Part shown: piece by piece, positions 33,870 through 64,000 of the stretch | Layout: every line of letters begins with the position of its first letter | Position numbering within the stretch: the stretch's first letter is position 1 | Source: Alphaproteobacteria bacterium | GTDB lineage: Bacteria > Pseudomonadota > Alphaproteobacteria > CALKHQ01 | Assembly: GCA_965227515.1 (NCBI GenBank) | Contig: CBDDFZ010000001.1 | Span: 2,560,001-2,624,000 of the forward strand | Length of the DNA: 64,000 bases | Reading direction: 5' to 3' | Translations under genes and position numbers: made by a program | Notes under the pieces: model-generated | Told to the model about the DNA's origin: nothing | Database searches by the model: none | The model's input: only the letters and a program-made list of their open reading frames with translations

Positions 33870-34025
33870 GAGAGGTCGCGGACCTTCATTATATGTTAAC
33901 CCTGTTTATCGTTGAAATATCTGGGGTTAGCGTCGGTTTTTATTGCATACCGGCAGGCCATCGGCCAGTTTGCCGAATGGTGGGGTTGTGAATCGGGCTT
34001 GGGTCGCACACAGGAGCGTCAACCC

Positions 34026-40185: not shown

Positions 40186-40437
40186 ATGATTACGCAGGCA
40201 CGAACGCCCGACCAGATTGGCAATACCATACGCAGGGCCCGCAAGAAGCTTGGGCTCAACCAGACCGACCTCGGCCGAATGGTGGGGATCGGGCAGAATA
40301 TGGTCTCGATGATCGAGAACGGGAACGCCGGCACCAGAATAGATACGATCCTCGCAATTCTAGCGGTTCTCGACCTCGAACTGCGCATCGGACCACGCAC
40401 AAGAACGACAGCCGCTGACATCGAAAACATCTTCTGA
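40186..40437 (+). CDS. hipB: HipB-like XRE antitoxin
   Basis: HTH_3 (IRRARKKLGLNQTDLG...VSMIENG), overlaps the hipA start. Confidence 0.9.
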   Translation: MITQARTPDQIGNTIRRARKKLGLNQTDLGRMVGIGQNMVSMIENGNAGTRIDTILAILAVLDLELRIGPRTRTTAADIENIF

Positions 40438-46069: not shown

Positions 46070-49000
46070 ATGGCGTTCGATTTGCCGCGCGCACACGGGG
46101 TGCGTGCCTATCGTCATACACTTAATAGTAATCAAATGTCCCTGCAGGGTCGGGACGCGGAACAGGTTCTCCGCCGAACATACCGGACCACGACGGCGCT
46201 GAGCGCCGCGGCCGCGGTGGCCGCGACGACGCTGGCACCTTCAATTGCCCTCGCGTTGCCGCAGGACGGCACCGTGGTCGAAGGCCAGGCCGAGATCATC
46301 TACGGGTCGAACTCGGTGGAGATCGTCCAGGGTTCCGACCGGGTGATCATCGAGTGGTCCTCGTTCGACGTGGGCGTCGACGAGAGCGTCAACTTCGTCC
46401 AGCCCTCGCAATTGGCCTCGGCGCTGAACCGGGTGCTGTCGGGCCAGTCCTCGGCCATCCTCGGCTCGCTGACCGGCAACGGCCAGATCACCATCGTGAA
46501 CCCGGCCGGCATCCACTTCGGGGCGACGGCGAATGTCGACGTGGCGGCGATCACCGCGACCACCATCGACATCATCAACGCCAACTTCATGGCCAACAAT
46601 CTGGCCTTCGACCAGTTCAACGACGACTTCGCGAACGCCACCGTCACCAACGACGGCTCGATCACCGTGCAGGACAGCGGCCTTGCCGCCCTGGTCGCCC
46701 CCGGCGTGGCCAACAACGGCATCATCGCGGCTAGGACGGGCGCGGTGGTGCTGGCGTCGGGTACGGCGTTCACGGTCGACCCCTACGGCGACGGTCTGAT
46801 CCAGTTCGCGGTGAATGCGCCGACGATGGAAGCGCCGGAGGGCATGGACGCCCTGGTCTCGAACTCCGGTGAGATCTATGCCGACGGCGGCACGGTGATC
46901 CTGACCGCTGAGGCGGTCTCCGGCATCGTCGACAACGTCGTGAACATGGACGGCGTGATCCAGGCGCAGACGATCGAGGGCCGGAACGGCCAGATCGCGC
47001 TGGTCGGCGGGTCCGGCGCCGGTGCGGTCAACGTGGCCGGCACGCTCGACGCTTCCGGTAATGACGCCGGCGAGGCTGGCGGCACGGTCCACGTGCTCGG
47101 CGACCAGGTGGCGCTGAACGTCGGCGCGAACGTCGACGTCTCGGGTGCGGCCGGCGGCGGCGAGGCGCTGATCGGCGGCGCCGCGCGCGGCGGTGCGCAG
47201 GCAGCCGGTGCCGCGCTGCAGTACCAAGAGACCGCCCAGGGCCTCAACATCATCTCCGACACGGCGTTCGAGACCGACGGCTACACGCCGACGTCCGATG
47301 TCGCCCTGGTCATGGACGGCGCCGATCTCGACGCACGGGCCACCGTTGACGGCGACGGCGGCCAGGTCATCGTCTGGGGCACGGACGAGGCCTATTTCCA
47401 TGGCGCCGTCGACGCCAGCGGTGCCGGTAATGGCGACGGCGGGTTCGTCGAGATATCGGGCGCGTATGTCTACGCGGACGGATCGGCGCTTGCCGGCGGG
47501 CCTGGCGGTACCGTTCTGATCGATCCTGACGATGCCTGTATCGCCGCTGTCATTGCCAGTTGTGCCTTCACCTCGCCGGTTGGGGTGTCCTTCTTCACGA
47601 CGGCCTTTGTCGCGGCACAACTCGCCGTAGGAAATTTCGTCCTGTCGACTACGGGTGGCGGTGCCGGCGACGGCGACATCGAAATTGGCGACGATCTGAA
47701 CGTGACGCCGGCGGCGGGAGCGACATTGTCGTTGACCGCGAACGACGACATTTGGGTTGACGGCGACATCATCGCCAGCGGTGCGAACGGCCTTAACCTG
47801 GATTTCGTGCTCACCAGCGGCGCAGGCGGCATTCCCAAGTCGGCGGCCATCTTCCTGCCCGGCACGGTCACGGATCTGAATGGCGGCGATGCGACCTTTA
47901 CCGGCACGCCATTCGCCGACTCGCTGTTGCGGGTGGAAGGGTCGATCACCGCTGGCAGCCTGGCGGCCAATGTCGAAGAGGTCCGGCTGCAGCAGGACAT
48001 CAACGTCGCCAGGGAGAATCTGTCCGGCACGGCGACCTTGGTCGAGGTGCAGAGCGACAGCGCGTCGATCCAGGACGCCATCGATTTGGTTAGCGGCAGC
48101 ACCATCAATGTGGCGGCCGGCACCTACAACGAGGCGCTGATCGTCGATGAGCACGTCACCATCATCGGCGCGGGCAGCGGCGACAACCCACTGGTCGACA
48201 CGATTGTCGACGGCACGGGCCTCGGCGACGTCGCGGCATTGGTCGCCATTTCGGCAAGTGGCGTCAGCGACGCCGACCGCCTGGAGCTCATGAATCTTCG
48301 GGTGCAGAATGCCGAGCACACCAACCTTGGCACCAATGCCGGCACCGGCATAAAGATGGTCGCCGGCGGCACCGACTTCATCACGTTCGACAACGTCGTC
48401 TCCACCGGGCACGCCGGACATGGCTTCGCCTACGACGCGAACAGCCTGTCGACCGGTGTCGAGTTGATCGACGTCACCTCGTCCAACAACGCCGGCTATG
48501 GCTTCCGCGTGCCGACCAGCTTGGCGGGCCTGACCGACTTCTCGATCCTTGGCGGAGAATTCGCCGACAATGGCGGCGCCGGTTTCGGCGCCAACCCGAG
48601 CGGCTTCGACAGCGCGGCCAACATTCGCCCATTCACGAACGTGTTGATCGACGGCACCGCGTTCGCCGGCAACAACACGAGCGGCATCGGAGGGCTCGGC
48701 GACATCGTCATTCTGGGCGTCGACGGCGACGTGACGATCCAGAACGTCACCATCGATTCCGACACGTTCCCGGCCAGCCGCGGGCTGTGGTTCGATTTCC
48801 ACGGCGACGCGACCCTGAACATGGACAACGTCGCATTCAGCGGCGTCCCCAGTTCCTGGGGCATGATCATCACCAATTTTGACGGCGCCGACGCCTTGAA
48901 CATGAACGACGTGTCGTTCGACACGGTGGTGCAGACGGCGGGCCGCGCCGATTTCACCGTCTGGGGTGCGGCGTCCACTGGGCCAGTCGACCTGGGCAAC

Positions 49001-52000
49001 ACCGCATTCCTGACCGACCCGGGATCGGGCCCGGCCTCCGACCAGTGGATCGGGCTGGTGTCAGGAGCGACGTCGAACGTCGACGCCTCCGACGCGGTGT
49101 TCAATGGCGTTGTCGGATCGGCCCACACCAGGGACGCGATGCCGAGCGGCTTCTTCCTGGAAGACCGCGTAACCCACGCTCTGGACGACGGCTCGTTGGG
49201 CCTGGTCACTTGGGTGGCCGACAACGTGTTCGTCACCCAGGCCAGCGGCAGCATCCAGCGCGGCGTCGATGCGGCATCGGCGGGCTGGACGGTCAATGTC
49301 GACGACGGCACGTTTGTCGAGAACGTGCTGATCGACAAGTCGCTCGACCTGCTGGGCGCCAATGCCGGCACCGACCCGAACACTGCGGCGCGCGATCCCG
49401 AGACCGAGATCGACGGCGTGGTGCGCGTGGACGCCGGGGTCAGCGGCGTGGCCATCGACGGCTTCACCATTATCGACGGCGCACCCGTGCTGGGTGAGTT
49501 CGGTGGTGTCTACGTCAACAACAACGCCGCCGACGTCACAATCGCCAACAACATCTTTGCGCGCTCCGGCGGATTCGGCACGGCGCGGGCCATCCTGTTC
49601 TCCGGCGCGGCGCCGGGCGTCAGCAACATCGACATTCTGAACAACAGCTTCAGTGGCTGGGCGACCGGCGTCTATGTCAACCCGAACGCCGACGATGTGC
49701 TGATCAGCGGCAACGTGTTCGACGGCAACAACGTCGGGGTGTCGAACGACGGGCCGAACAGCCCCGGCGGCGTCACCATCGACGGCAACACCTTCGCCAA
49801 CAGCGCGTTCGAGGCGCTGGGCCTGGGCGGTCCGGGCACCCGCACGATCACCAACAACGTGTTCGAGAACAACCCGGTGCACATCGGCACCTATGGCGCC
49901 GCCGGCTTGCCGGACGTGGCCACGTTGCAGGCCGACGGCAACACCTTCGACCGCCATGTGACGTCGGACCTGGACGATGCCGGCTCCGCGCGCGACGCGG
50001 CGACGTCGATCTACGGCGAGATCCAGCTCGCCATCGACGAGTCCGCCGCCGGCGCAACCGTGACCGCCAGCGACGGCACGTTCGTGGAGAACGTGGTCAT
50101 CGACAAGGCGCTGATGCTGCTGTCGGAGAACGGGCGCGACTTCACCACCATCGAGGGCATTTCCGGCGTTGGCGCGTTGGGCACGGTCCTGCTGCCGGGC
50201 GGTGTCGACGACGTGCAGATCGGCGACATCGACCAGGGCTTCACCATTGTCGGCATCGACAATGGCGCCCCCGGCATTGAGACCGCGGCGGTCTACCTGC
50301 AGGGCAACCACAACAATTTCGACCTGATCGGCAATGACGTGGTGGCGATGGGCGACGCCGGCCTGCTGGGTGAGTCCGCCGGTGCGCTGACCAACGCGCT
50401 GATCGACAACAACATCTTCTCCGGCCAGACCTTCGAGGGGCCGGAGCCGGCCGACAACGGTTTCAGCAACCAGTTCTCCACGCCGAACGTGCCCCGCCAG
50501 CTCGTCACCCTGGGTGAGGGCAACAGCGGTCCCTTCGTCTCCAACAACATCGCCTTCACCAACAACCAGGTGACCGGCACCGCCGGCGGCAGCAATGGCG
50601 GCGGCGAGCAGGGTAATACGCTCGTCACCATCGATGCCGATATGGTGACGGTCAGCGGCAACACGTTCTCGGGCTTTACCGCCCGGTTCGCCAGCCAGTT
50701 GCGCACCCGCGGGCCGAACACCGACATCGTGAACAACACGTTCATCGTGCCGGCCGGTGTCGCCACGGCCGGCTTGTTCGTGTCCGGCGTCGACTCCACG
50801 GTGATCGCCAACACCTTTACCGGCGGCACGATTGGCATTTCGACCAATCCGAAGGGCGCCATCGCCATCGAGAACAACGTCTTTGATGGCCAGACCGGCG
50901 CCGCACTGAACGTGGGGGCCGACGCTGCGTTCCTGACCGTCTTCAACAACAGCTTCGAGCCGGCCGGCGGCGCGTTCGCGGTGTTCAACAGCTCGGCGGA
51001 GATCGTCAACGCCTCCGGCAACTGGTGGGGCACCAACGACGAGACGCTGGTCGCTGCGATGATGTCCGGCGACGTGGACTTCACGCCCTTCCTGGATGTT
51101 GCCGACGACACCGACGTGGCGGACGGCTTCCAGGGCGACTTCACCACCCTGCACGCAACGGTTCTGGGCGCGCAGACCGACGCCGCAACTTACGGCCGCA
51201 TCCAGGAGGCCATCGACCTTGTGACCGCCAGTACGGTCATCCTTGGCGCCGGCACCTTCATCGACCCGGCCCAGGTGGTGATCGACAAGGACGTCACCAT
51301 CATCGGCCAGGGCTCCGGGACCGGCCCGGGCGACTCGATCGTTAATCCGGGTTTCGACACCGGCAGCGGGGGCAACGCGCGCGGCTGGTGGTTGATCCTG
51401 GACGATGTCGAGGTCGACCTCAGCGACTTCCGGATGGATGGCAACGGGCAGCTCGTGTGGCAGGCGATCCGTCACCTTGGCCGCGGCAGCATCGACAATC
51501 TTGCCTTCAACAACATCCAGTTCAACGCCAGCGGTCCGAGCTACCAGGGTACGGCGGTGGCCGTGTTTGGCGCCACTGATGCCAATGTCGACATCACCAA
51601 CTCGACGTTCGACCAGATCGGCCGCATCGGCGTGCTCTATTTCGGCAGCGCCGTCACCGGCACGTTCGCCAACAACGTCTACACCGGCAAGGGCGACGGC
51701 GATCACCTCGACTACGCGCTCGACATCAGCGCCGGCGCCACCATCAACGTGTTCAACAACACCGTGACGGAAAACCGGGGCGTTGCGTCATCGGATGGGT
51801 CGATCTCCGCCGCGTTCCTGGTCTCCACGTTCTTCGCCGGCGGTACATCGGCTGTGTTCGGCGGCAACACGATGACCGGCAATACCGTCGGCATCGCAGT
51901 CGGCTTCGACGATGCCGATACCAGCACGGTCCAGTTCCTGAATGCGGGCGACAGCGTCGATAGCCACATCATGGCCGGCGCGAACACCTTCATGGATTCC

Positions 52001-55000
52001 GGCAACGAGGACGAGACCGGCATCTTCTTTTCTGGCAACAGCCAGACCATCGTCGGCGATACGTTCGCGGACGCCGTGTTCAACGGCTATGGCGACCTTG
52101 ACGACCTTTACATCCAACTGCGCAATCAGGCGCTGTCGGACCCGGCCAACGTGCGGGTGCTGGACGCGACCGACGTCACCTTCACAGGTGCCAGCGCGAC
52201 CGAGATCGAGGACCGGGTCGAGCACTATCTCGACGATCCGACCAAGGACCTGATCTTCTTCGGCCCGACGATCACCGTCGCCGACAGCATCCAGCTTGCC
52301 GTCAACGCGGCCGAGCAGGCGCGCAGCGACGGTTTCGTCGTCGACGAGATCATGGTCGGTCCGGGCACCTATGGCGGCCGGGTCGAGATTTGGGTCGACG
52401 ACCTGAAGATCACCGGCGACGACGCGATCATCGACCTGGACATGGAGGACCCGTTCTCCAACAACCCGTCGCCTGACGCGCTGCCGAACCATGGCTTCCT
52501 GATCGGCGATGCCGGTGTGGTGGGCGACGGCGTTTCCGGCGACGGCGTCACCGGCTCCTATGCCAACGGGCTGGACGTTTCCGGCGTCGAGATCGACCCG
52601 TTCACCTTCACCAACAGCAACGACGGCAGCGGCACCGGCATCATCGTCGGCCTGTCGGCCGGTCCCAGCGTGGCCTCGAACACCGTCATCGACGGCAATT
52701 CGTTCGAGGACATCGAGGTTGGCATCGCGTTCAACAACGTGGCCGGCACCACCACGATCAGCAACAACACGATCCTGGCCGACCTGATCGGTCTGACGTT
52801 CGAGGGCACGCTGGGCGGTGGCGCCATCGTCGATATCCTGGACAACACCATCGGCGCCGATGGCGACGAGGTGCTGAACGGCATTCTGTTCCAGCGCATC
52901 GACACAGCCGAGGTGACGATCTCCGGCGGCAGCATCGACAGCGGTGCCGGCGCCGGCCCGATCCTGGGCGATGCCATCAACTTCCAGCGGGGCCTGCACA
53001 GCGGCGCCGACGTCGAGATCAGCGGCGTGACCGCGGTCTCCGACGGTGACGAGCCGGTCGACTTCCACCAGGCGATCCGCGCCGGCGCCACCGCGACCAT
53101 CTCCGGCGGCAGCTATACCGGCGGCAACAATGGCGTCGAGTTCTCCGGCGCCATCGCCGGCACCGCCATCATCGAGAACGCAACCATCGTCGGCCAGGGC
53201 GCCGACAAGCGCGGCGTCAATCTCCTCGGGTCGATCACCGGGCTGTTGGACATTTCCGGCAGCACCATCACCGGCGGCGACGACGGCATCGGCTCCAACG
53301 ACAGCGCCGCGAACACGGTCGTCGGCGGCACGGTCCGGCTGACCGACAACACCATCACCGGCATCAGCGGCCATGGCGTGTCGTTCGACGCCATCAGCGA
53401 CGGCGCCGATCTGGAGTTCCTCGGCAACACCGTCGCGGCGGCGCTGAACGGGTTGAGCTTCAATGGCGCGGTGACCGGCTCGCTGATCAACATCGGCAAC
53501 AACAACAACTCCGGCCGCAACATCATCACCGCGGACAACTCCGGCATCGTGTTCGCCGGCTCGATCCTCGATTCCGCCGACGGCAACGGCATTCGCATCC
53601 GCCGCAACACGGTGACCGCCGGGCCGAGCGCCGGCGACCGGGGCATCGAGTTCCGCGACGGCATCGAAGACAGTTTCGTGCGGGTGTCCAACAACCGCAT
53701 CGGGGCCGGTGACGATGGCGTCGCCTTCTACGACCTGAACGGTGGGGCCAACGGCAGCGGCGTGCGCGCCATTGCCGGCACGTCCGATGTCGCACTGAGC
53801 GGCAACCGCATCGGCACCGCCGGCGACCCGGTCGGGGCTGAGGGGCTGGACTTCGACGAGATTATCGACACCGCCACGGTTGTGGTGCGCGAGAATGTGG
53901 TCTTCGCCGACGGCGACGGCATGCAGTTCGACCGCGTCATCAACACCACCGGCAGCACCAATGCGGCGCCGGCGGGCGGCGCGCCGACCTACACCGGCGG
54001 CGTGGTGATCGTCGGCAACGAGATCAACGCGGCCGGCCACGGCGCGCTGTTCGACACTACCATCGACGGCACCGATATCGCGTTCGGCGACAACGACTTC
54101 GGCAGCGATGCCGATCCGGTCGGCGGCGACGGCGTGCAGTTCAAGACCATTGCCGGCGACGCGCTGATCAGTTTCGAGCGCACCCACATCGAAGCGGACG
54201 GCGACGGCGTGTCGGTGGTCGGCGGCATTCTGGACACGGCGACGCTGGCGTTCGATGCGCCGCGCGATCCGGCGGGCGGGCCTGACGGCCGCGATAACGA
54301 CATCGATGCCGGCGGCATCGCGGTCAACGTGGTGAACCTGCAGTCGCCGGGCACCCTGGTGTTCTCAGGCGGCGTCTACAGCGGCGCGGCCGGCAGCGTG
54401 CTGGTCGACAACACCGGCGTCGCCAGCGCGGCGGTCGGCCGGGTGGTGTTCGAGAACGACCCGACGTTCAATGCCGATCCGGGCGTCGATGTCGCGGCGT
54501 TCGTGACCGAGGCGGGCGGCCCCGGCATCGAGATCGACTTCTCCGGTGCCAGTGGTGCCACGTTCAACGGCGGCGAGAACGGCATCGTGTTCGACGGACC
54601 GGGCATCGACATCGCCGGCGACAGCCTGGGCGATATCGCGGTGAACGGCCAGGCCGACCAGTACCTGGTGCTGCGCAATGGCGCGGAGTTCGCGCCCGGC
54701 ATGCCGAACCTGATCGACATTCAGGACGTTGCCTTCGATGGCGACGAGCCTGGCGACCTGTCGCCGGCCGGCCTGGTGGCGCTGGAAAGCAAGCTGGCCC
54801 ACTTCCTCGACACCAACGAGGATGGGCTTTTCTACTACGGCCCCACCTATGCGGTGGCCGATGGCGGCAGCATCCAGCTTGCGGTGAACGCGGCCGAGCA
54901 CGCGCGGTTCCTGCTCAACGACCTGAACGCGGTGGATACGGTCCTTGTCGGGTCCGGCACCTATGGCGGCCGGGTCGAGCTGTGGGTCGACGATCTGAAG

Positions 55001-58000
55001 CTGACCGGGCTGGATACCGGCGGCGGCGATCCGGTCATCGACCTGTCGTTCGACGACGCGTTCTCCAACAACCCGTTCCCGACCTCGCTGGCGCACGGCT
55101 TCCTGGTCGGTGACGCCGGCATCGTCGGCGACGGTGTGGCGGGCGATTCGGTCGGCGGCGCCTTCGGCTCGCACGCCAACGGCAACGACGTCACCGGCGT
55201 CGAGGTCGATCCGTTCACCTTCGATGGCACCGGCGCGCTTGGCGGCCCGCCCAGCACCGGCATCGTGGTCGGGCTGACGGCCAGCGGCATCTCGCCGGCC
55301 AGCGTGGCCTACGACACCGTCATCGACGGCAACACTTTCCACGACCTCGACTTCGGCATCACCTCGAACAACTCCTCGGGCGAGACCCGCATCGTCAACA
55401 ACACGATGCATGACATCGCGGTCAACGCGGTCCGCTTCGAGGACGCGGTCGAAGGCGGCGAGTTCGTGCTGATCCGCAACAACGACATGGCGTCGGGCCA
55501 GCACGTGCTGCTGTTCCGCGACCTGATCACCGGCGCCGACACGCTGCTGCGCATTCGCGGCAACTGGCTGGTCAGCACCGGTGGCGGCACCCAGTCCGAC
55601 GGCATCGCTTTCGGGCAGGCGATCCAGGACGAGGCCGATGTGCGGATCGTGGAGAACCACGAGATCCGTGGCACCGAGGGCATCGACGTCGACCGTGTCG
55701 ACAACGCCAACCTGCGCATCAACCGCAACACCCTGATCGTCGGCGAGATCGAGGAAGGCATCGAGTTCGATGACCTGATCGCCAACGACGCGCGGGTCGC
55801 GGTGCGCGACAATGTCGACATCATCGGCGCCACCCATGGCATCGCTTTCGTCGACAACGGGGCCATCGACGGCGCCACCGTGAACATCAGCGGCAACAAC
55901 GACGGCATCCTGGGCCAGAACGGCAACGGCATCCTGTTCAACCGGGCGATCACCGACGGCCGGATCAATATCGGGGCCGGCAACATCATCGAAGGCATCA
56001 CCGGCAGCGGCGTGCGTTTCGCGGCGACGATCGCGGACTCGCGGATCGACATCTTCGAGAACACGTCCATCGTCGGCGACGCGAACGGCGTCGAGTTCAC
56101 CCAGACCTTCGGCGCCGGCAACGTGCTGAACATCCTGGCCAACACCCTGATCGAGGGCGACGGCAGCGCAGACGACAGCGACGCCATCGACTTCCGCAAC
56201 GCGGTGGGCGGCACGGTCAACATCGTCGGCAATGTGGAACTGGCCGGCAACGACGACGGCCTGCAGGTGATCCACGGCATTATCGGCGGGACCTTCCTGG
56301 TGCACGGCAACCAGAGCATCGTCGGCCGCGATGGCGAGGGCATCGCGATCCTGAGCAACGACGGCAATGTGCCGCCGGCGCCGACGGTGGCGATCAGCGG
56401 CGGGGCCGTGGTCACCATCGACGACAACATGATTGTGGGCAACGAGGAGACCGACCCGGTTCTGCAGAACCCGGGCGGCGGCGGTGACGGCGTGCTGGTG
56501 TCGGGCGACGTGGTGGGCGCGACCCTGAACGTCACCAACAACACGATTTTTGCCTTCAACGACGGCACCAACGTGTTCGGCGCGTTCGTCGATGCGCAAG
56601 CGTTCCTGGACGACAACACCATCCACGCCGGGCTTGGCGCCGATGGCAATGGCGACGGCATCCACGTCGAGGGCGCGGTGGACGACAGCCGCATCCAGGC
56701 CGTGCGCAACACCATCGAGGTCGGCCTGAACACCGTCGCCGGCGGCACGCTGCACGACGGCCTGTACTTCGGCGGCGACATCCTGGGGACCTCGCGGGTT
56801 ATCCTGCGCCGCAACGACATCATGGTGCTGACCGGCCCTGCCGGTGGCGCCACCTCGTTCGGCGACATGGGCATCCGCTTCGACGGCTTCATCGACACCA
56901 ATGGCGGCAACCTGGCCGACGTGCTGATCCGCAACAACGACATCCAGGCCGGCGGTGGCAAGGAAGACCGCGGCATCTCGTTCTGGAACGGCATCGGCGG
57001 GTCCTCGTTCGTGGAGATTTCCAGGAACGACATCGCGGCGGGCGACGACGGCGTCGGCGTGTTCGACACCATCGGCGGCAGCCAGCAACAGTCGGTGCGC
57101 GGCGATGCGCTGCTGCTGATTGCCGAGAACAACATCGGCACCGACACCCTGTCGGTCGGCAATGCCAGCCCGAACGACGGCAACGGCATCGACTTCCAGC
57201 GCGTCACCGGCGAGTCGCGGGTGGTGATCGACAGCAACTCGATCTTCGCCCGCTACAACGGCATCGAATTCGACAAGCTGGTCGACACCAGCTTTGCCGG
57301 GCCGGGCGCGGGCGTCGCGATCATTCGCAACAGCGATATCGTGTCCGACCGCGAGAACGCGATTGCGTTCGAAGCCGGCGTCGACGGTTCCTCGGTCAAC
57401 ATTGCCCGCAACGCGCTGATCCTGGGGGCGTTGAACGGCATCAAGTTCGGCGGTCCGGTCGATAACGGCGCACTGGTGCGCATCTGGAACAACCACCACA
57501 TCATCGGCGAGGACGAAAACGGCATCCTGTTCAATGGCATCGCCGGGTTCGACACCGATGTGTGGATTGGCCTGAACCACCTGATCCGGGGCTATGACAA
57601 CGGCATCTACTTCGCCCGTGACGTGATCGCGCCGGACGACGACAGCGATCTGGAGCAGTTGCTGGCGGGCTTCCTGCCGGAGGGCTGGGCCATCGATGGC
57701 GCGTCAGCCAATGTCGTCCTCAACCATCGCATCATCGGCGAGACCGAGAACGGCATCCTGGCCGAAGGCATTCGCGGCGATGCGAGCAACCCGGACGAGA
57801 ACCTGCTGGTCGCGCTCAACAAGCGGATTCGCGGCGAGGAGAACGGCATCTGGCTCGCCCACGGCGTCGACTACACCGCGACCGACGGCCCGCTTACGCT
57901 GTTCGGGAGCCTTTTCTCCTTCGCCCTCGATATGTGGGCGATCGACAATGGCCAGGTGGCGATCCTGAACAACCTGTCGATCCTCGGCGACACCGCCGAC

Positions 58001-60358
58001 GGCGTCCGGGTCGACGGCGTGCTCGACAGCGACGAGATCGACCGCACCGAACTGGCGATCAATGGCAATCTGGCCGTGATCGGCGCCGAGAACGGGGTCA
58101 ACCTGCGCCATGGCGTCAGCCTGGATGTGTTTGGCGAGTACGAATTCGGCCCCACCGATGCGATCACCTTGTCGGACGGGCCGGCTCTGTCCGCGCTGAC
58201 GCTGCCGGCCTCCTTCGAGCTGGAAGTCTTCGGTGTGGCGGCCGCGATCTACGGGGCCGAGGTGGAGATCGCCTACAACGCGCTGTTGCATGGTCATGAA
58301 GACAACGGTGTGGCGGTCCACGGCATCGTCGACATGCCGACCTTCCCGGAAGAGAGCACGGAGCCGGAGAGCACGGATAGCGAGGCCCTGTCCGAACTGA
58401 CTTTGGCATCGCTCGGGTCGTTCGAATCGTTGGACTATGGCACCGACTGGAACCTCGACCTGCACGACAATCTGGTGGTGGTCGGCGGCACCAACGGCGC
58501 CATGATCGACCATGGCTACCGGCTGTTCTTGCAGGCCGAAGGCGGCGCCTTCGCGGCGACCGTGACCGAGCTGGCATCGTTCGAAAGCCTGGGCAGCGAC
58601 ATCTATTTCCAGGCTTGGCTGGACGCTTGGGCGATCTACGGCGGCCATGCCCGCATCGCCGACAACTGGGCGCTGTATGGCCAGTATGGCGACGGCGTGC
58701 GGGTGAACGGTGTCCGCAGCGAAGGTGTGGTCGCTGAATCGGCGAGCGGCGAAGCGCCCGAGGTCGATCCGGTCAGCACAAGTCCCGATTGGGCGAACCT
58801 GCTGATCGAGGACAACACCACCGTGGTCGGCGCGCGCGACGGCATCCATCTCGGCAACGGCCACGTGGTCCACTACGAGAACATGCCCGCGTTCGAAGTG
58901 GTCGACCTGACGGCCCGTGGCCTGTCCAGCGACAGCTTCGGGCTGGTGGACATCAGCGAGTTCGGCGTGTCGGGCAGCGTGTTCGGTGGCCTGGTGGTGA
59001 TCGACAGCAATGGCGATGCCCGCTACCAGAACGACCCCAACGATCCCGGCGACGACCCGGACGTCGACGATCCCTACGATCCGGCGATCCCGGTCATCCT
59101 GTCCGACCTGGACTTCGGCCGGGGGCTGATGGACATGCGCGGCCGCGTGGCCGGCATCCACGACGACGGCATCGACGTTGCCGGCAGCATCGACTACAGC
59201 GCCACGGTCCAGATCCAGCGCAACATGATCACCGGCAGTGGCGACAACGGTGTCGAGTTCGGCAACATCGGCGGCCCGGCGCTTGCCGACGACGTCGACC
59301 CCGATGCTGGCGAGCTGGTCGGCATCTTCGACTACGGGCCCAGCAACGTCTTCGTGCACAACAACTTCATCGTCGACAACGGCCAGCGGCTGCTGGAGGA
59401 GACGCCGGAGGAAGAGGAGACCGAGCTGGAGGTCACGGCCGTCAGCTTCCCCTCGCTGGAGGTTTCCAGCCGCCTGACCGGGGCCGGCATCCTGTTCGAG
59501 GAAGGCGTCGGTAATGATGGCCTGGCCGAGGTCTACCAGAACTACATCGCCGGCAATGGCGGTCCCGGCGTACAGATCGGCTTCGACTCCTCGGGCACGC
59601 CGACGACGGCGACGCTGGTCTTCGAAAGCGACGACGATTTCGAGCCCGACTTCAACACCGGGCCGGTCGCGGCCGACAATTTGCGCATCGTGCACAACTA
59701 CCTGCCGGGCTTCGAGGACGAGGGCGTCGATCCCGACGATCCGGGCGACGACCGGCCGAACGGCAGCTTCGCCATCGACAACAACTCCACGGTCGGCGGT
59801 CTGCTGTTCGCGGAGGAGAACTGGCTCGGCTCGGCCGACCCTGGCGTGGTGCCGAGCTTCATCGACGGTGCGGTCGACTTCTTCCCGTTCCTGGAGACCG
59901 GCGAGGACTCCAACGAAGAGCGCGCGCCCGGCCTGACCGGACTGTCGCCCTTCGCCTTCCAGCCCGGCGAGATCGTCGTGCTGGCCACCGAAGATGTGAT
60001 CGACCTGGACTTCCTGGCGGTGGCGCTGCTGCTGTTTATCGCCGGCCAGACCGATCCGGACCTAGTGCCGGGCGACGAACTCTCCGGCCGCTCGCAAAAC
60101 GACGCCACCAACGCGTTCGACGACGAGTTCGCCGATCCATATCCGCTGGGTCTGGAAACGGACCTCGCCGCCCTGGCGCCGGCGGCCGGCCAGGCCTGTG
60201 CCCTGGACAACTCCAGCGGAACCGTGGCCATCGTCTGCGGGGCGGGTGGAGAGACCGATCTCGCCGATCTGGCGCCGGCTGCCGGCAGCGGCACGCCGCT
60301 CGCCGACCCGTCGCAGGTGTTCCAGGGTTACGACAACTTCTGGGCGCCGTTCCAGTAG
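46070..60358 (+). CDS. Giant filamentous-haemagglutinin-like TpsA exoprotein (TPS domain plus multiple right-handed beta-helix modules), 4762 aa
   Basis: Extended signal peptide ending ALA-LP, TPS motifs (IEWSSF, NRV, NG, NPAGI.FG), repeated pectin-lyase-like caps, Gly/Asp/Asn-rich. Confidence 0.92.
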   Translation: MAFDLPRAHGVRAYRHTLNSNQMSLQGRDAEQVLRRTYRTTTALSAAAAVAATTLAPSIALALPQDGTVVEGQAEIIYGSNSVEIVQGSDRVIIEWSSFDVGVDESVNFVQPSQLASALNRVLSGQSSAILGSLTGNGQITIVNPAGIHFGATANVDVAAITATTIDIINANFMANNLAFDQFNDDFANATVTNDGSITVQDSGLAALVAPGVANNGIIAARTGAVVLASGTAFTVDPYGDGLIQFAVNAPTMEAPEGMDALVSNSGEIYADGGTVILTAEAVSGIVDNVVNMDGVIQAQTIEGRNGQIALVGGSGAGAVNVAGTLDASGNDAGEAGGTVHVLGDQVALNVGANVDVSGAAGGGEALIGGAARGGAQAAGAALQYQETAQGLNIISDTAFETDGYTPTSDVALVMDGADLDARATVDGDGGQVIVWGTDEAYFHGAVDASGAGNGDGGFVEISGAYVYADGSALAGGPGGTVLIDPDDACIAAVIASCAFTSPVGVSFFTTAFVAAQLAVGNFVLSTTGGGAGDGDIEIGDDLNVTPAAGATLSLTANDDIWVDGDIIASGANGLNLDFVLTSGAGGIPKSAAIFLPGTVTDLNGGDATFTGTPFADSLLRVEGSITAGSLAANVEEVRLQQDINVARENLSGTATLVEVQSDSASIQDAIDLVSGSTINVAAGTYNEALIVDEHVTIIGAGSGDNPLVDTIVDGTGLGDVAALVAISASGVSDADRLELMNLRVQNAEHTNLGTNAGTGIKMVAGGTDFITFDNVVSTGHAGHGFAYDANSLSTGVELIDVTSSNNAGYGFRVPTSLAGLTDFSILGGEFADNGGAGFGANPSGFDSAANIRPFTNVLIDGTAFAGNNTSGIGGLGDIVILGVDGDVTIQNVTIDSDTFPASRGLWFDFHGDATLNMDNVAFSGVPSSWGMIITNFDGADALNMNDVSFDTVVQTAGRADFTVWGAASTGPVDLGNTAFLTDPGSGPASDQWIGLVSGATSNVDASDAVFNGVVGSAHTRDAMPSGFFLEDRVTHALDDGSLGLVTWVADNVFVTQASGSIQRGVDAASAGWTVNVDDGTFVENVLIDKSLDLLGANAGTDPNTAARDPETEIDGVVRVDAGVSGVAIDGFTIIDGAPVLGEFGGVYVNNNAADVTIANNIFARSGGFGTARAILFSGAAPGVSNIDILNNSFSGWATGVYVNPNADDVLISGNVFDGNNVGVSNDGPNSPGGVTIDGNTFANSAFEALGLGGPGTRTITNNVFENNPVHIGTYGAAGLPDVATLQADGNTFDRHVTSDLDDAGSARDAATSIYGEIQLAIDESAAGATVTASDGTFVENVVIDKALMLLSENGRDFTTIEGISGVGALGTVLLPGGVDDVQIGDIDQGFTIVGIDNGAPGIETAAVYLQGNHNNFDLIGNDVVAMGDAGLLGESAGALTNALIDNNIFSGQTFEGPEPADNGFSNQFSTPNVPRQLVTLGEGNSGPFVSNNIAFTNNQVTGTAGGSNGGGEQGNTLVTIDADMVTVSGNTFSGFTARFASQLRTRGPNTDIVNNTFIVPAGVATAGLFVSGVDSTVIANTFTGGTIGISTNPKGAIAIENNVFDGQTGAALNVGADAAFLTVFNNSFEPAGGAFAVFNSSAEIVNASGNWWGTNDETLVAAMMSGDVDFTPFLDVADDTDVADGFQGDFTTLHATVLGAQTDAATYGRIQEAIDLVTASTVILGAGTFIDPAQVVIDKDVTIIGQGSGTGPGDSIVNPGFDTGSGGNARGWWLILDDVEVDLSDFRMDGNGQLVWQAIRHLGRGSIDNLAFNNIQFNASGPSYQGTAVAVFGATDANVDITNSTFDQIGRIGVLYFGSAVTGTFANNVYTGKGDGDHLDYALDISAGATINVFNNTVTENRGVASSDGSISAAFLVSTFFAGGTSAVFGGNTMTGNTVGIAVGFDDADTSTVQFLNAGDSVDSHIMAGANTFMDSGNEDETGIFFSGNSQTIVGDTFADAVFNGYGDLDDLYIQLRNQALSDPANVRVLDATDVTFTGASATEIEDRVEHYLDDPTKDLIFFGPTITVADSIQLAVNAAEQARSDGFVVDEIMVGPGTYGGRVEIWVDDLKITGDDAIIDLDMEDPFSNNPSPDALPNHGFLIGDAGVVGDGVSGDGVTGSYANGLDVSGVEIDPFTFTNSNDGSGTGIIVGLSAGPSVASNTVIDGNSFEDIEVGIAFNNVAGTTTISNNTILADLIGLTFEGTLGGGAIVDILDNTIGADGDEVLNGILFQRIDTAEVTISGGSIDSGAGAGPILGDAINFQRGLHSGADVEISGVTAVSDGDEPVDFHQAIRAGATATISGGSYTGGNNGVEFSGAIAGTAIIENATIVGQGADKRGVNLLGSITGLLDISGSTITGGDDGIGSNDSAANTVVGGTVRLTDNTITGISGHGVSFDAISDGADLEFLGNTVAAALNGLSFNGAVTGSLINIGNNNNSGRNIITADNSGIVFAGSILDSADGNGIRIRRNTVTAGPSAGDRGIEFRDGIEDSFVRVSNNRIGAGDDGVAFYDLNGGANGSGVRAIAGTSDVALSGNRIGTAGDPVGAEGLDFDEIIDTATVVVRENVVFADGDGMQFDRVINTTGSTNAAPAGGAPTYTGGVVIVGNEINAAGHGALFDTTIDGTDIAFGDNDFGSDADPVGGDGVQFKTIAGDALISFERTHIEADGDGVSVVGGILDTATLAFDAPRDPAGGPDGRDNDIDAGGIAVNVVNLQSPGTLVFSGGVYSGAAGSVLVDNTGVASAAVGRVVFENDPTFNADPGVDVAAFVTEAGGPGIEIDFSGASGATFNGGENGIVFDGPGIDIAGDSLGDIAVNGQADQYLVLRNGAEFAPGMPNLIDIQDVAFDGDEPGDLSPAGLVALESKLAHFLDTNEDGLFYYGPTYAVADGGSIQLAVNAAEHARFLLNDLNAVDTVLVGSGTYGGRVELWVDDLKLTGLDTGGGDPVIDLSFDDAFSNNPFPTSLAHGFLVGDAGIVGDGVAGDSVGGAFGSHANGNDVTGVEVDPFTFDGTGALGGPPSTGIVVGLTASGISPASVAYDTVIDGNTFHDLDFGITSNNSSGETRIVNNTMHDIAVNAVRFEDAVEGGEFVLIRNNDMASGQHVLLFRDLITGADTLLRIRGNWLVSTGGGTQSDGIAFGQAIQDEADVRIVENHEIRGTEGIDVDRVDNANLRINRNTLIVGEIEEGIEFDDLIANDARVAVRDNVDIIGATHGIAFVDNGAIDGATVNISGNNDGILGQNGNGILFNRAITDGRINIGAGNIIEGITGSGVRFAATIADSRIDIFENTSIVGDANGVEFTQTFGAGNVLNILANTLIEGDGSADDSDAIDFRNAVGGTVNIVGNVELAGNDDGLQVIHGIIGGTFLVHGNQSIVGRDGEGIAILSNDGNVPPAPTVAISGGAVVTIDDNMIVGNEETDPVLQNPGGGGDGVLVSGDVVGATLNVTNNTIFAFNDGTNVFGAFVDAQAFLDDNTIHAGLGADGNGDGIHVEGAVDDSRIQAVRNTIEVGLNTVAGGTLHDGLYFGGDILGTSRVILRRNDIMVLTGPAGGATSFGDMGIRFDGFIDTNGGNLADVLIRNNDIQAGGGKEDRGISFWNGIGGSSFVEISRNDIAAGDDGVGVFDTIGGSQQQSVRGDALLLIAENNIGTDTLSVGNASPNDGNGIDFQRVTGESRVVIDSNSIFARYNGIEFDKLVDTSFAGPGAGVAIIRNSDIVSDRENAIAFEAGVDGSSVNIARNALILGALNGIKFGGPVDNGALVRIWNNHHIIGEDENGILFNGIAGFDTDVWIGLNHLIRGYDNGIYFARDVIAPDDDSDLEQLLAGFLPEGWAIDGASANVVLNHRIIGETENGILAEGIRGDASNPDENLLVALNKRIRGEENGIWLAHGVDYTATDGPLTLFGSLFSFALDMWAIDNGQVAILNNLSILGDTADGVRVDGVLDSDEIDRTELAINGNLAVIGAENGVNLRHGVSLDVFGEYEFGPTDAITLSDGPALSALTLPASFELEVFGVAAAIYGAEVEIAYNALLHGHEDNGVAVHGIVDMPTFPEESTEPESTDSEALSELTLASLGSFESLDYGTDWNLDLHDNLVVVGGTNGAMIDHGYRLFLQAEGGAFAATVTELASFESLGSDIYFQAWLDAWAIYGGHARIADNWALYGQYGDGVRVNGVRSEGVVAESASGEAPEVDPVSTSPDWANLLIEDNTTVVGARDGIHLGNGHVVHYENMPAFEVVDLTARGLSSDSFGLVDISEFGVSGSVFGGLVVIDSNGDARYQNDPNDPGDDPDVDDPYDPAIPVILSDLDFGRGLMDMRGRVAGIHDDGIDVAGSIDYSATVQIQRNMITGSGDNGVEFGNIGGPALADDVDPDAGELVGIFDYGPSNVFVHNNFIVDNGQRLLEETPEEEETELEVTAVSFPSLEVSSRLTGAGILFEEGVGNDGLAEVYQNYIAGNGGPGVQIGFDSSGTPTTATLVFESDDDFEPDFNTGPVAADNLRIVHNYLPGFEDEGVDPDDPGDDRPNGSFAIDNNSTVGGLLFAEENWLGSADPGVVPSFIDGAVDFFPFLETGEDSNEERAPGLTGLSPFAFQPGEIVVLATEDVIDLDFLAVALLLFIAGQTDPDLVPGDELSGRSQNDATNAFDDEFADPYPLGLETDLAALAPAAGQACALDNSSGTVAIVCGAGGETDLADLAPAAGSGTPLADPSQVFQGYDNFWAPFQ

Positions 60359-60383
60359 GCCACGGCTTGCGTTACGAATTCAG

Positions 60384-60420
60384 CGGCCCGGGTGGTTCTC
60401 CATCCGGGCCGTTTCCTTTT
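60384..60420 (+). terminator. Rho-independent terminator
   Basis: cggcccgggtgg-ttct-ccatccgggccg hairpin followed by tttcctttt, downstream of the giant gene. Confidence 0.75.
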
Positions 60421-60426
60421 GTTGGA

Positions 60427-61206
60427 TTAGTCGCCGCCGCAGCCGCCACCGCCGCCGCAACCGGAACTGCAGCCGCTGGAGCATCCGCTGGTGCCGCAAC
60501 CGCCTGCGCCGCCGTCACGCCCGCGACGGCCCTTGCCGGACTGGCGGCGTGACATCTGCACCATGGCAATGACGAACAAGACGAGGCCGCCAAGCGCAAT
60601 CCATTCGCCTTCGCTGACGTCCTCCAGCCCGGCAAGCGCCAGCGACGAGCCGCCGATTACCAGGGCCAGCGCCGCCAGGGCGACCGTCACGGTCCGGCCC
60701 CCGGCGGCCTTCAGGCCGTCGACCCACCGCGGTCGCGGAATCACCCAGGCGCGGGAAACGTTGATGCGCTTGAACTGGACGGCCTCGATGAACCGCGTGT
60801 CGGTGTCGGGCCAGATATCGGCGGGCGGCGCGGTGCCGAACTCCGCCGCGTAGAGCGCGCGGGTGTCATCGTAGCAGCCGCGATACATCGGCTCCTCCGA
60901 TATGCCCCGGGTCGGCCCGTGATGCAGCGGGCGCCCCAGGACTTCGGCGCAGAGCCGGTCCCAGTAGTCGCGGGTATAGGTCATGTGCAGGTGCCACGCC
61001 TGGTCGACCTCGTCCGACGGTGTCAGGGTCGAGCGCGAGACCTGGGTCAGGTAGACGAAGCGCTTGTACTCGGCAACCACGCGGGCGGCGAACGCGCGGC
61101 TCCAGCCGTTGTCGCGGGCCAGCCGGGCGCTGAACGGAAATTCGGCCACCGGATCGTCGACATCGAATGCGTCGACGCGAGACCAGAGCTGAGGATCGGA
61201 TCGCAT
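60427..61206 (-). CDS. Glycine-rich domain (GRDP/DUF1399-like, TIGR04222-like) membrane protein
   Basis: RLAR.NGW, EYKRF.YL, PSDEVDQAWHLH, LHH.P; two TM helices; Cys/Gly/Ser tail. Confidence 0.82.
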   Translation of the reverse strand: MRSDPQLWSRVDAFDVDDPVAEFPFSARLARDNGWSRAFAARVVAEYKRFVYLTQVSRSTLTPSDEVDQAWHLHMTYTRDYWDRLCAEVLGRPLHHGPTRGISEEPMYRGCYDDTRALYAAEFGTAPPADIWPDTDTRFIEAVQFKRINVSRAWVIPRPRWVDGLKAAGGRTVTVALAALALVIGGSSLALAGLEDVSEGEWIALGGLVLFVIAMVQMSRRQSGKGRRGRDGGAGGCGTSGCSSGCSSGCGGGGGCGGD

Positions 61207-61402: not shown

Positions 61403-62446
61403 TCAGGACGCCCGGGAACCGGCGGTTTCCGCGGGCTGCTGCGATCTCAGGAACTTGTCGCGCAAGTGCGGTCCGGCCTGGACCGGCGGGTATTTTGCAC
61501 CCTCCGCGCCACGGCAGGTCGGCACGCACGTGATCTCCGCATCCCAGTTCGGGGTGTGGAAGAAGGCCAGTGACAGGCGCGGGGCCGGGTCGCCGTCTTG
61601 TGCCGTTGGCGCGACAACCCGGTGCATGGTCGAGACCCAGCGATCGTTGGTCCAACGCTCCATCATGTCGCCCAGATTGATGATGAACCCGCCGGGCACC
61701 GGGGGCACGTCGTGCCAGTCGCCGGCACGGTCGCGCACTTGCAGCCCCGTCGTGCCGGGCTGTGGCAGCAGGATTGTCAGGCTGCCATAGTCGGTGTGCG
61801 CGCCGGCGCGCAGTTGGCCGGGCAGGGGTGGCGCGGTGGCCGCGGGGTAGTGATTGGCGCGCATCGCACTGATGTGGCGGTCGATCTTGTCGTCGAAGTG
61901 GTCGGGTGCCAGGTCCAGCGCGACCGCGAACAGCCGCATCAGGCGCGCGGCCAGGCCGGCCATCTCGGCGTAGTAGGCGTGCCAGGCGGCTCGCATTTCC
62001 GGCAGCGCCGGCGGCCAGATATTGCCGGCATGGACGAATGCCAGTTCCGCCGGGTCGATGCGGTCGGTCGGCGTCGTGGGCGGGCCCATGGAGAAGCTCT
62101 CCTTCAGGTCCGGCGGGGCCGCATCGCCACGCGAGCGCGCCAGCGCCTCGCCGGCAAACGGATGGAATCCGTACGGATGGCCGGCCACATTGGGCACGCA
62201 GGCCCGTTTCGCGTTCTCTGGCAACAGGAACAGCGCGCGGGTGGTTTCCCAGACCCGGTCGATTGCCGGCCGGGCCACGCCATGATTCACCACCGCAAAG
62301 AAGCCGATGCTGCGGCAGGCTTCGTCGATGGCAGCGGCCACCGTTGTTGGCGCCGCGCTATCGGTGACCTTTGCCAGATCGATGGTCGGTACGAGTCTTG
62401 GACTGTCTACTCTGGGGCTCTCCATGCTCTCAACTGTCGCGCGCAC
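61403..62446 (-). CDS. Isopenicillin N synthase-like 2OG-Fe(II) oxygenase
   Basis: VPTIDL, GFF.V.NHG, DLKE, HTD, NLGD, H, RLS motifs; start uncertain. Confidence 0.9.
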   Translation of the reverse strand: MRATVESMESPRVDSPRLVPTIDLAKVTDSAAPTTVAAAIDEACRSIGFFAVVNHGVARPAIDRVWETTRALFLLPENAKRACVPNVAGHPYGFHPFAGEALARSRGDAAPPDLKESFSMGPPTTPTDRIDPAELAFVHAGNIWPPALPEMRAAWHAYYAEMAGLAARLMRLFAVALDLAPDHFDDKIDRHISAMRANHYPAATAPPLPGQLRAGAHTDYGSLTILLPQPGTTGLQVRDRAGDWHDVPPVPGGFIINLGDMMERWTNDRWVSTMHRVVAPTAQDGDPAPRLSLAFFHTPNWDAEITCVPTCRGAEGAKYPPVQAGPHLRDKFLRSQQPAETAGSRAS

Positions 62447-62891: not shown

Positions 62892-64000
62892 ATGCTGTTT
62901 GGTGGCTCCACCGTGCAGGCTGCACGGCGTAATCGATTGGTAGTAAATGATAATTTGACGGCCCTGCAGGGTCGGGACGCGGAACAGGTTCTCCGCCGAA
63001 CATACCGGACCACGACGGCGCTGAGCGCCGCGGCCGCGGTTGCCGCGACGACGCTGGCACCTTCCATTGCCCTTGCGTTACCGCAGGACGGCAACGTGGT
63101 CGAGGGCCAGGCCGAGATCATCTACGGCTCGAACTCTGTCGAGATCGTCCAGGGCTCCGACCGGGTGATTATCGAGTGGTCGTCGTTCGACGTCGGCGTC
63201 GACGAGAGCGTCAACTTCGTCCAGCCCTCGCAGCTCGCCTCCGCACTGAACCGGGTGCTGTCGGGCCAGTCCTCCGCCATCCTGGGCTCGCTGACCGGCA
63301 ACGGCCAGATCACCATCGTGAACCCGGCCGGCATCCACTTCGGGGCGACGGCGAATGTCGACGTGGCGGCGATTACCGCGACGACCATCGACATCATCAA
63401 TGCCAATTTCATGGCCAACAATCTGGCGTTCGACCAGTTCAACGACGACTTCGCGAACGCGACCGTCACCAATGACGGCTCGATCACGGTGCAGGACAGT
63501 GGGCTGGCCGCATTGGTCGCGCCGGGCGTGGCCAACAACGGTATCATAGCCGCGAAGACGGGCGCGGTGGTGCTGGCGTCGGGCACCGCGTTCACCGTCG
63601 ACCCCTATGGCGACGGGCTGATCCAGTTCGCGGTCAACGCGCCGACGACCGAGGCGCCCGAGGGCATGGACGCCCTCGTCAGCAACTCGGGCGAGATCTA
63701 TGCCGACGGCGGCACGGTGATCCTGACCGCTGAGGCGGTCTCCGGCATCGTCGACAACGTCGTGAACATGGACGGCGTGATCCAGGCGCAGACCATCGAG
63801 GGCCGCAATGGCCAGATCGCCCTGGTCGGCGGTTCCGGTGCCGGTGCGGTCAACGTGGCCGGCACACTGGATGCCTCCGGCAACGACGCCGGCGAGGCTG
63901 GCGGCACGGTGCACGTGCTGGGCGACCAGGTGGCGCTGAACGTCGGCGCGAACGTCGACGTCTCCGGTGCGGCCGGCGGCGGCGAGGCGCTGATCGGCGG
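62892..64000 (+). CDS. Second TpsA/FHA-like exoprotein, 5' part (runs off the window; absent from the ORF track)
   Basis: ATG at 62892 is in frame with LQGRDAEQVLRR...ALALPQDG and a TPS domain nearly identical to 46140-47180. Confidence 0.92.
   Translation, partial: MLFGGSTVQAARRNRLVVNDNLTALQGRDAEQVLRRTYRTTTALSAAAAVAATTLAPSIALALPQDGNVVEGQAEIIYGSNSVEIVQGSDRVIIEWSSFDVGVDESVNFVQPSQLASALNRVLSGQSSAILGSLTGNGQITIVNPAGIHFGATANVDVAAITATTIDIINANFMANNLAFDQFNDDFANATVTNDGSITVQDSGLAALVAPGVANNGIIAAKTGAVVLASGTAFTVDPYGDGLIQFAVNAPTTEAPEGMDALVSNSGEIYADGGTVILTAEAVSGIVDNVVNMDGVIQAQTIEGRNGQIALVGGSGAGAVNVAGTLDASGNDAGEAGGTVHVLGDQVALNVGANVDVSGAAGGGEALIG

Follow-up and report, generated by a model that had tools for sequence, protein, structure and literature searches.

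A conserved C-terminal module with PAAG motifs and a cysteine pair on giant alphaproteobacterial TpsA proteins, a candidate tether for LapG-like proteases

To our knowledge nearly every established substrate of LapG and the other proteases of the BTLCP family is a type I RTX adhesin from Gamma- or Deltaproteobacteria, with CdrA as the sole case from two-partner (type Vb) secretion, and we know of no BTLCP-type site in the HMW1 or FhaB systems. Anchoring of HMW1 requires a C-terminal disulfide. Here we analyse the C-terminal tail of a giant two-partner-secretion exoprotein, TpsA, encoded in a window of 64,000 nucleotides (by which we mean the whole stretch of DNA analysed, positions 2,560,001 to 2,624,000 of the forward strand of contig CBDDFZ010000001.1, assembly GCA_965227515.1) from an alphaproteobacterium of the lineage CALKHQ01, and compare it with the closest systems described. 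In Pseudomonas aeruginosa the adhesin CdrA stalls in CdrB through a disulfide-closed C-terminal hook, LapG cuts off this hook at TAAG (2105/2106 of 2154 residues) and thereby sheds the adhesin, and LapD sequesters LapG when cyclic di-GMP (c-di-GMP) is high (PMC8472254, PMC4694147, bioRxiv 10.64898/2026.07.13.738186). LapG likewise cleaves PAAG in Vibrio cholerae FrhA, and a change to PRRG blocks this cleavage (PMC6890996). In models of validated protease and substrate pairs [T/A/P]AAG lies on the catalytic triad and has a targeting helix and a DP turn before it (PMC13090378); the same paper describes DvhD as a receptor for c-di-GMP and the partner of the BTLCP DvhG. Furthermore, HMW1 and CdrA are cited as trapped intermediates (PMC8472254), and the FhaB prodomain of about 1200 residues is degraded by other proteases, with TpsA C-termini able to serve secretion control (PMC5422565). 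An earlier model-made reading of this stretch from its letters alone (hereafter the sequence-only reading) had stated that LapG cuts [T/P/A]AAG and that CdrA is retained by a disulfide hook which LapG removes, and on both points it agrees with these sources.

Taken together our analyses suggest, with a probability that we put at roughly 0.55, that the tail of this TpsA is a CdrA/LapG-like periplasmic disulfide hook which a BTLCP would remove by cutting at the first of two PAAG sites.

The C-terminal module and its conservation

We identify the 4762-residue protein as a two-partner-secretion TpsA because it combines an N-terminal TPS domain with a passenger of right-handed beta-helix repeats (Beta_helix); from the alternative start at Met23 (46136), the one used in database representative P0003, it would have 4740 residues. 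Its last 67 residues are exactly as the sequence-only reading had given them, namely a 12-residue motif (ETDLAALAPAAG, residues 4696-4707), QAC containing Cys4710, 12 further residues, Cys4723, GAGG, a second 12-residue motif (ETDLADLAPAAG, residues 4728-4739) that is identical to the first at 11 of 12 positions, and a final 23 residues. Both motifs end in PAAG, and that of the first (site 1) lies 57 residues before the C-terminus, directly ahead of the Cys hairpin. The protein was also said to have almost no other Cys, and in fact only four of its 4762 residues are Cys (490, 498, 4710 and 4723). The interval 60155-60358 to which that reading drew attention spans the motifs, the Cys loop, the protein end and the stop codon; the conserved module itself starts earlier, at about 59936 (Table 1). 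As for the N-proximal pair, an equivalent Cys-x6/7-Cys stands at the same relative place in paralogues and relatives (e.g. 472/480, 535/542 and 156/163).

PAAG occurs three times in the protein (547, 4704 and 4736) against 0.26 expected from its composition, and in a six-frame translation of the whole 5.5-Mb genome the relaxed pattern DL..[LIVM]AP[AS]AG finds four matches against 0.10 expected, two of them in this tail, one in the tail of a paralogue and one in a Sel1-repeat protein. As these counts far exceed expectation the tail feature is real, and together with the conservation described below they exclude an origin by chance or low complexity. A sortase/exosortase-type C-terminal sorting signal was likewise considered and ruled out, no transmembrane helix or basic tail following the motif. 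The Sel1-repeat protein just mentioned (457 aa, C1:574262-575635, L014:9262-10635) contains DIDLAALAPAAG, 10 residues of which are identical to the adhesin site, and judged by this match it could be a further BTLCP substrate.

The genome consists of two replicons of 4.07 and 1.45 Mb, the window lying on the larger, and encodes four TpsAs of 4762, 2411, 2608 and about 2270 aa. All four carry the C-terminal module, so that the tail is found not only on the second paralogue, where the sequence-only reading had proposed to look for it, but also on two further ones. Among these paralogues identity is 74-86% over the first ~500 aa and 41-46% over the last ~130 aa, with passengers between them that are unrelated or nearly so. 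An alignment of the four tails (A1) gives the layout of the module: a hydrophobic/amphipathic stretch with Q(T/S)xP…PGDxxxGR…DxxN, often a DP, and DLxxLxPAAG; then two to three residues, Cys, 12-13 residues, Cys and a Gly-rich linker; and lastly a second LxxLxPA(A/G)G and a short helix that ends in an aromatic residue. At the level of the aligned sequences, L-x-x-L-x-P-A-A-G, the Cys-x12/13-Cys predicted hairpin and a weaker second copy of the motif are shown to form its invariant core.

Scans of 11 tails against Pfam and NCBIfam at E <= 10 returned single stray matches only and no model for the module. Among 1.84 billion representative proteins, 13 matched the A1 profile at E <= 1e-3, these being four proteins of the genome itself, eight TpsA-type proteins or fragments and one spurious match; 12 of the 13 are thus TpsA-type, with the module at or near the C-terminal end. 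A search with alignment A5 added two further modules (two loci) on metagenome contigs and none on genome contigs, and no match to the tail came up among 72,556 plasmids searched by tblastn. The motif was expected to be conserved in homologues if it had a function of this kind, and indeed relatives, both of another genus and from metagenomes, keep the tail. Using a second profile (A3) we detected the module in three of the four species-level genomes of the window's family, which makes up the whole order, and in none of the 397 other genomes of a class sample of 401, the same sample in which the positions of TpsB and BTLCP genes were compared (the tallies include the unpublished G043 and G242). 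A short remnant of the module was also seen elsewhere in the window's own genome, G000 (C1:1458452-1458574, minus strand).

Within the module the Cys pair is kept in 14 of 14 cases, with no variants, the first PAAG in 12 of 14 (the variants being PAAE in P0010 and P-AGG in P0011) and the second in 8 of 13 (variants PAGG, PGAG twice and PASG twice). The better-kept PAAG is therefore site 1, whose cleavage would remove the hook, and the second is possibly a duplicate that has become vestigial, or else serves docking. One could also imagine that both sites are cut, which would yield a disulfide-looped periplasmic peptide of ~32 residues acting as a signal or inhibitor, for example by reporting the release of the adhesin. 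The Cys loop is certainly bracketed by two near-identical motifs in this lineage, but site 2 is degenerate in five of 13 modules, the G139-type and G173 tails described below have all their motifs upstream of the Cys pair, and nothing points to a receptor for the peptide; we hold this outcome to be highly improbable.

Modelled alone with AlphaFold2 (AF2), the tail is mostly disordered (mean pLDDT 55), and its best-scored part is a beta-hairpin with strands at module residues 88-91 and 98-101 (pLDDT ~73) that has both Cys at its ends. A short helix is predicted at module residues 60-65 (pLDDT ~50), a weak candidate counterpart of the targeting helix of LapG substrates, and a DP is present 14 residues ahead of PAAG in seven of 11 aligned modules. 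The predicted helix (AFDDEF) and the Asp-Pro lie 14-22 residues upstream of the first PAAG and are, with weak support, a possible equivalent of the 'targeting helix and DP turn'. Prediction of a complex between the protease bt1 (residues 60-253) and tail residues 50-140 gave ipSAE values of 0.00 and 0.01, with no controls run, and we use it neither for nor against an interaction.

LapG-like proteases, the single TpsB and a receptor candidate

The protease and the TpsB that such a hook calls for, left by the sequence-only reading to a genome search, are both present. Six Peptidase_C93/BTLCP (PF06035) genes lie above the Pfam cut-off, all of them with signal peptides and with the Cys of GDCED and the His and Asp retained, and two of them, bt1 included, match the LapG structures 4U65 and 4FGO. 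The sole TpsB (POTRA_2 and ShlB barrel, C2:858248-859978) is encoded on the smaller replicon with no tpsA adjacent, and bt1 lies ~1 kb from it in convergent orientation, a proximity with a chance of ~0.007 given six BTLCPs in 5.5 Mb. The tpsB-orfX-BTLCP arrangement, in which orfX denotes a conserved gene directly after tpsB, recurs in four of four genomes of the family, and the TpsB-linked BTLCPs of these four genomes form one clade (support 99/98). A second copy, bt2, is a 98.3%-identical, ~1.2-kb gene-sized duplicate of bt1 (L008:10236-11463); the duplicate stands on the other replicon, at L009:10039-10800 (C1:3239039-3239800), between genes for an ABC-transporter ATPase and a TfoX-like protein. 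No LapA-type N-terminal retention module (NF033682) was found in the 4762-residue TpsA, and in the genome the best match to it, FecR-like and with no xAAG downstream, reaches 37.8 bits against a cut-off of 50, so that the classical substrates of BTLCPs appear to be missing here.

On these grounds we propose the following course of events. After Sec export the single TpsB, encoded on the second replicon, would thread the passenger outward, while the tail would be held in the periplasm, its disulfide-closed hairpin and flanks being unable to pass the TpsB pore, and the adhesin would therefore stay cell-bound. A BTLCP, for which the tpsB-linked one is the best candidate, would then cut the first PAAG between its two alanines, on the N-terminal side of the hook, and such a cut would shed the adhesin. 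As in the Lap and Dvh systems, inside-out c-di-GMP signalling might gate this shedding, a suggestion made because one of the BTLCP paralogues is paired with a DvhD-like receptor. Moreover, the four paralogues carry the same tail on unrelated passengers, which implies that several different adhesins are secreted and released by a single apparatus.

The paired receptor is not of the type that the sequence-only reading had in mind. It had looked to a LapD-like protein, and the LapD domain (PF16448, LapD_MoxY_N) found no match in the genome, in a weak search that matched none of the control genomes either; nor did Pfam scans find a GGDEF-EAL protein in five BTLCP neighbourhoods, with that of bt4 scanned only in part. 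What does stand beside one BTLCP, divergently paired with bt3, is P0015, a protein of 711 aa with a transmembrane segment, a ~300-aa periplasmic domain, a second transmembrane segment, PAS and HD-GYP. Its cytoplasmic part matches the DvhD structures of 2026 (9RC0, E 6e-40; 9RBZ, E 3e-33), the next HD-GYP protein following at 2e-17, and it is degenerate, with NL for HD (SQ in DvhD) and GLP for GYP; its periplasmic domain gave no sequence match to 9RC2. By sequence P0015 is a DvhD-like degenerate PAS/HD-GYP receptor and a candidate for c-di-GMP binding. Whether it puts at least one BTLCP under c-di-GMP control is a matter on which we would give somewhat less than even odds, judging from the pairing and the likeness to DvhD. 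The same bt3/P0015-type gene pair also occurs in another genome of the comparison, G002, where a degenerate TpsA-like copy lies 3 kb away (L054:10658-12268, minus strand).

The conserved gene directly after tpsB and before the convergent BTLCP, orfX, encodes a signal-peptide protein of ~240 aa in four of four family genomes (L008:11287-12201 (-) on C2, L051:9953-10693, L052:4181-4996 and L053:10132-10854), with an odd C-terminal extension of ~60 residues in G000. Scans of it gave no Pfam family, the AF2 model (pLDDT 70) has an alpha/beta fold, and Foldseek against the PDB found no match at E <= 1e-3. Upstream of tpsB there is a gene for a Sel1/PG-binding protein, distinct from the Sel1-repeat protein with DIDLAALAPAAG. 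The tail might also be viewed not as an anchor but as a periplasmic aid to secretion or folding (a prodomain-like intramolecular chaperone, or a dock for the orfX protein), or as a tip that is exported and bears a disulfide knob. In favour of such a role, the motifs make up only a minor part of the module, which also has a conserved amphipathic stretch and a conserved C-terminal helix; orfX follows tpsB throughout the family; and prodomains of FhaB type are a case of TpsA C-termini with a part in secretion control (PMC5422565). Such a role leaves the repeated PAAG and the linkage to a BTLCP unexplained, however, and the tail is mostly predicted to be disordered, and we consider a role of this kind quite improbable.

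Tails of TpsAs in other lineages and the weighing of the tether

In the class sample BTLCP genes are present in 129 of the 401 genomes, TpsB genes in 115 and both in 48, the last being a hand count from genome lists. Outside the family one clean tpsB/BTLCP case emerged from the comparison, G173, in which tpsB, tpsA and a convergent BTLCP that abuts tpsA form a compact three-gene cluster between housekeeping genes. The TpsA of this cluster (1447 aa; TPS, Beta_helix and NosD) has exactly two Cys, and its tail carries two LxxLDSAAGG motifs and, after them, a Cys-x33-Cys pair a few residues from the end, an arrangement on which the A3 profile gave no detection. The 1294-aa TpsA of G139 ends in two LxxLEPAAGG motifs and then Cys-x17-Cys, and a search with this tail led to 22 protein clusters of TPS/Beta_helix/NosD proteins, in all 22 of which, as listed, two to three copies of LxxL[EAS]P[AS]AGG precede a Cys pair; two source names appear among them, Rickettsiales and Alphaproteobacteria MAGs (metagenome-assembled genomes). 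In G013 the tail has DPAAG followed by Cys-x7-Cys. The TpsA of G386 is ambiguous, with STAAGP 60 residues from its end, no Cys, and a BTLCP 11 kb away. In the complete 1.9-Mb genome G090 no TPS-domain protein was found, for which reason it is uninformative on tails; there tpsB and a BTLCP gene directly after it share one strand, beside sdhAB (L059:9434-11983).

We also surveyed 24 complete TpsAs adjoining TpsB genes with a home-made TPS profile, three of them added by N-terminal motif or adjacency only, and leaving out one ORF (open reading frame) that ran off the fetched DNA and two ORFs without a stop. Within the last 200 residues a Cys pair was present in 8 of 14 TpsAs from BTLCP-containing genomes and in 1 of 10 from BTLCP-lacking ones (p = 0.02), xAAG in 5 of 14 and 1 of 10 respectively (p = 0.17), and both features together in 4 of 14 and 0 of 10 (p = 0.09). 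This points the right way for an association of BTLCPs with such tails, and proves nothing.

Taking these lineages together, we would put forward, as a tentative proposal that is more probably wrong than right, that repeated L-x-x-L-x-P-A-A-G-G with a terminal Cys pair might be a general alphaproteobacterial signature of TPS adhesins that serve the class's many 'orphan' BTLCPs as their chief substrates. The signature would then be either ancient and strongly diverged or convergent, and would stand for a type Vb equivalent of the Lap/Dvh circuit, so far overlooked outside Pseudomonas. If this were true, the multiplied BTLCP paralogues (six here), some TpsB-linked and some DvhD-linked, would differ in the adhesins that they shed and in the signals that they obey.

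Several observations weigh against a tail that tethers the adhesin and is cut by a BTLCP. Its cleavage, its topology and its disulfide are what we infer, and none of the four tpsA genes in the genome is near a BTLCP. A clean site 1 is absent from two modules, those of P0010 and P0011, and the degenerate TpsA-like copy in G002, of 536 aa, keeps the Cys loop and has no AAG before it. The profile search, in which CdrA was not aligned directly, revealed no homology to the CdrA tail at E <= 1e-3. Within the family the unrelated genes that flank tpsB and the BTLCP (xanthine dehydrogenase, Sel1/PG-binding, MFS) are syntenic too, so the conservation of the pair may be simple descent and adds little beyond the adjacency itself. 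Across the class the co-occurrence of TpsB and BTLCP is weak (odds ratio 1.8, Fisher p = 0.007, uncorrected for genome size or phylogeny). Two G139-type members have PSAGG in every repeat, and the TpsAs of G158 and G302 have a Cys pair without xAAG. The survey, finally, is small, hand-picked and partly non-independent, G158 and G302 belonging to the same genus, and its p value of 0.09 leaves the combined feature not significant.

Some of these same points would be expected if the tail were a disulfide anchor and nothing else, holding the adhesin in or beneath TpsB in the manner proposed for HMW1, with the PAAGs as structural turns and with release by another protease or none. The Cys pair is the sole fully invariant pairing, tails with the pair and without xAAG are seen in G351 and G217b in addition to G158 and G302, site 1 is imperfect in two of 14 modules, and no tpsA here adjoins a BTLCP. 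Against this, L-x-x-L-x-P-A-A-G-G is kept across tail families that have otherwise diverged beyond profile detection, and is repeated two to three times before the Cys pair, which is unexpected for a mere turn. In addition the motif equals a validated BTLCP site (PMC6890996), and two separate families have a BTLCP next to tpsB or tpsA. An anchor alone thus seems to us unlikely, and a hook that is both anchor and BTLCP substrate is the reading that we prefer. Even without a role as a tether, the tail is an unannotated conserved domain that marks a small, rarely sampled bacterial order.

Neighbouring genes and comparison with known systems

The other features of the locus are collected in Table 1. 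Two terminator-like sites were found against 0.3 in shuffled sequence, and one of them lies just past the tpsA stop codon. The convergent ORF that follows has hydrophobic segments and a Gly/Cys-rich C-terminal tail and matched no Pfam family; it may resemble the TIGR04222-type membrane proteins. Just downstream of tpsA there is also a DIOX_N/2OG-Fe(II) oxygenase gene, and on a metagenome contig (L063:7867-11028) three tandem oxygenase genes of the same type come after a module-bearing tpsA, so this oxygenase may be a conserved neighbour of tpsA that, for example, hydroxylates the adhesin. Upstream of the adhesin locus lies a HipA-family kinase toxin gene, and the window also holds, by Pfam, valS, a gene for a TolC-like OEP, and genes for PCMT, SapC, PhyH and a DAO oxidoreductase.

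Table 1. Positions of the tpsA gene, the parts of its product and the neighbouring genes, in window coordinates.
Feature	Position	Strand	Remarks
TolC-like OEP gene	33912-35450		Pfam
valS	36301-38973		Pfam
HipA-family kinase toxin gene	40437-41747	+	HipA_C and Couple_hipA
tpsA, giant two-partner-secretion exoprotein	46070..60358	+	ORF of 14.3 kb, 4762 aa, stop-free
TPS secretion domain, residues 64-320	46259..47029	+	PF05860, E 3.4e-30; whole-genome search agrees
N-proximal Cys-x7-Cys pair (C490, C498)	47537..47563	+	end of the ~500-aa N-terminal block common to the paralogues
Conserved C-terminal module, last ~130-140 aa	59936..60355	+	alignments A1 and A3; no family model
Short predicted helix (AFDDEF) and Asp-Pro	60113..60139	+	AF2, low confidence
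First 12-residue motif	60155-60190	+	ends in site 1
Site 1, PAAG residues 4704-4707	60179..60190	+	cleavage site proposed for a BTLCP, on the N-terminal side of the Cys loop
Cys4710-x12-Cys4723 loop	60197..60238	+	proposed disulfide hook; predicted beta-hairpin, invariant Cys columns
Second 12-residue motif	60251-60286	+	ends in site 2
Site 2, PAAG residues 4736-4739	60275..60286	+	C-terminal of the Cys loop, less conserved
Intrinsic-terminator-like hairpin and T-run	60382..60423	+	just 3' of the tpsA stop; 14-pair stem
259-aa ORF	60427-61206	-	convergent with tpsA
DIOX_N/2OG-Fe(II) oxygenase gene	61403-62446	-	
Second TpsA paralogue, start	62892..64000	+	TPS domain; 2411 aa in the genome, extends past the window end, same tail module

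The C-terminal tails of TpsAs now present themselves as a candidate class of BTLCP substrates that can be searched for directly by sequence. They would moreover link type Vb secretion to a c-di-GMP receptor of the DvhD type, which was only recently described structurally, and the present genome, with its single TpsB, its six proteases and four adhesins whose passengers are unrelated, offers a tractable system in which to study adhesin-specific decisions to attach or detach.

Our literature searches found no BTLCP-TpsA system described in Alphaproteobacteria, although an earlier survey may exist in the primary CdrA/LapG paper or its supplements. The sequence-only reading had presented the locus as a regulated attach/detach system that it did not know of in this lineage, and the idea of something unprecedented does not hold: what we describe is a variant of the known CdrA/LapG mechanism, of moderate novelty. 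Similar to the CdrA/CdrB-LapG-LapD system, there is a TpsA adhesin with [T/P]AAG ~50-57 residues from the C-terminus, then a Cys pair forming a putative disulfide hook, and a periplasmic BTLCP in the genome. Unlike in CdrA, a second PAAG follows the loop, the module is ~130 aa long, four substrates share one TpsB, there are six BTLCPs, and one of these lies beside tpsB; the present tail also has no sequence kin outside its lineage at E <= 1e-3 among 1.84e9 representatives, in a search in which CdrA itself was not aligned directly. The candidate receptor is of the DvhD type rather than LapD. With DvhA/DvhG/DvhD of Desulfovibrio vulgaris and LapA/LapG/LapD the locus shares the pairing of a BTLCP with an inner-membrane receptor and the substrate motif [T/A/P]AAG (PMC13090378), and P0015 resembles DvhD in combining PAS with a degenerate HD-GYP that has substitutions at the same metal-binding positions. 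The Dvh and Lap substrates are RTX adhesins of type I secretion that carry their retention module at the N-terminus, whereas here we have type Vb candidates with a proposed C-terminal cut. In HMW1/HMW1B of Haemophilus influenzae and in FhaB with its prodomain a TpsA is held at the cell by its C-terminal end, as is proposed for the present TpsAs.

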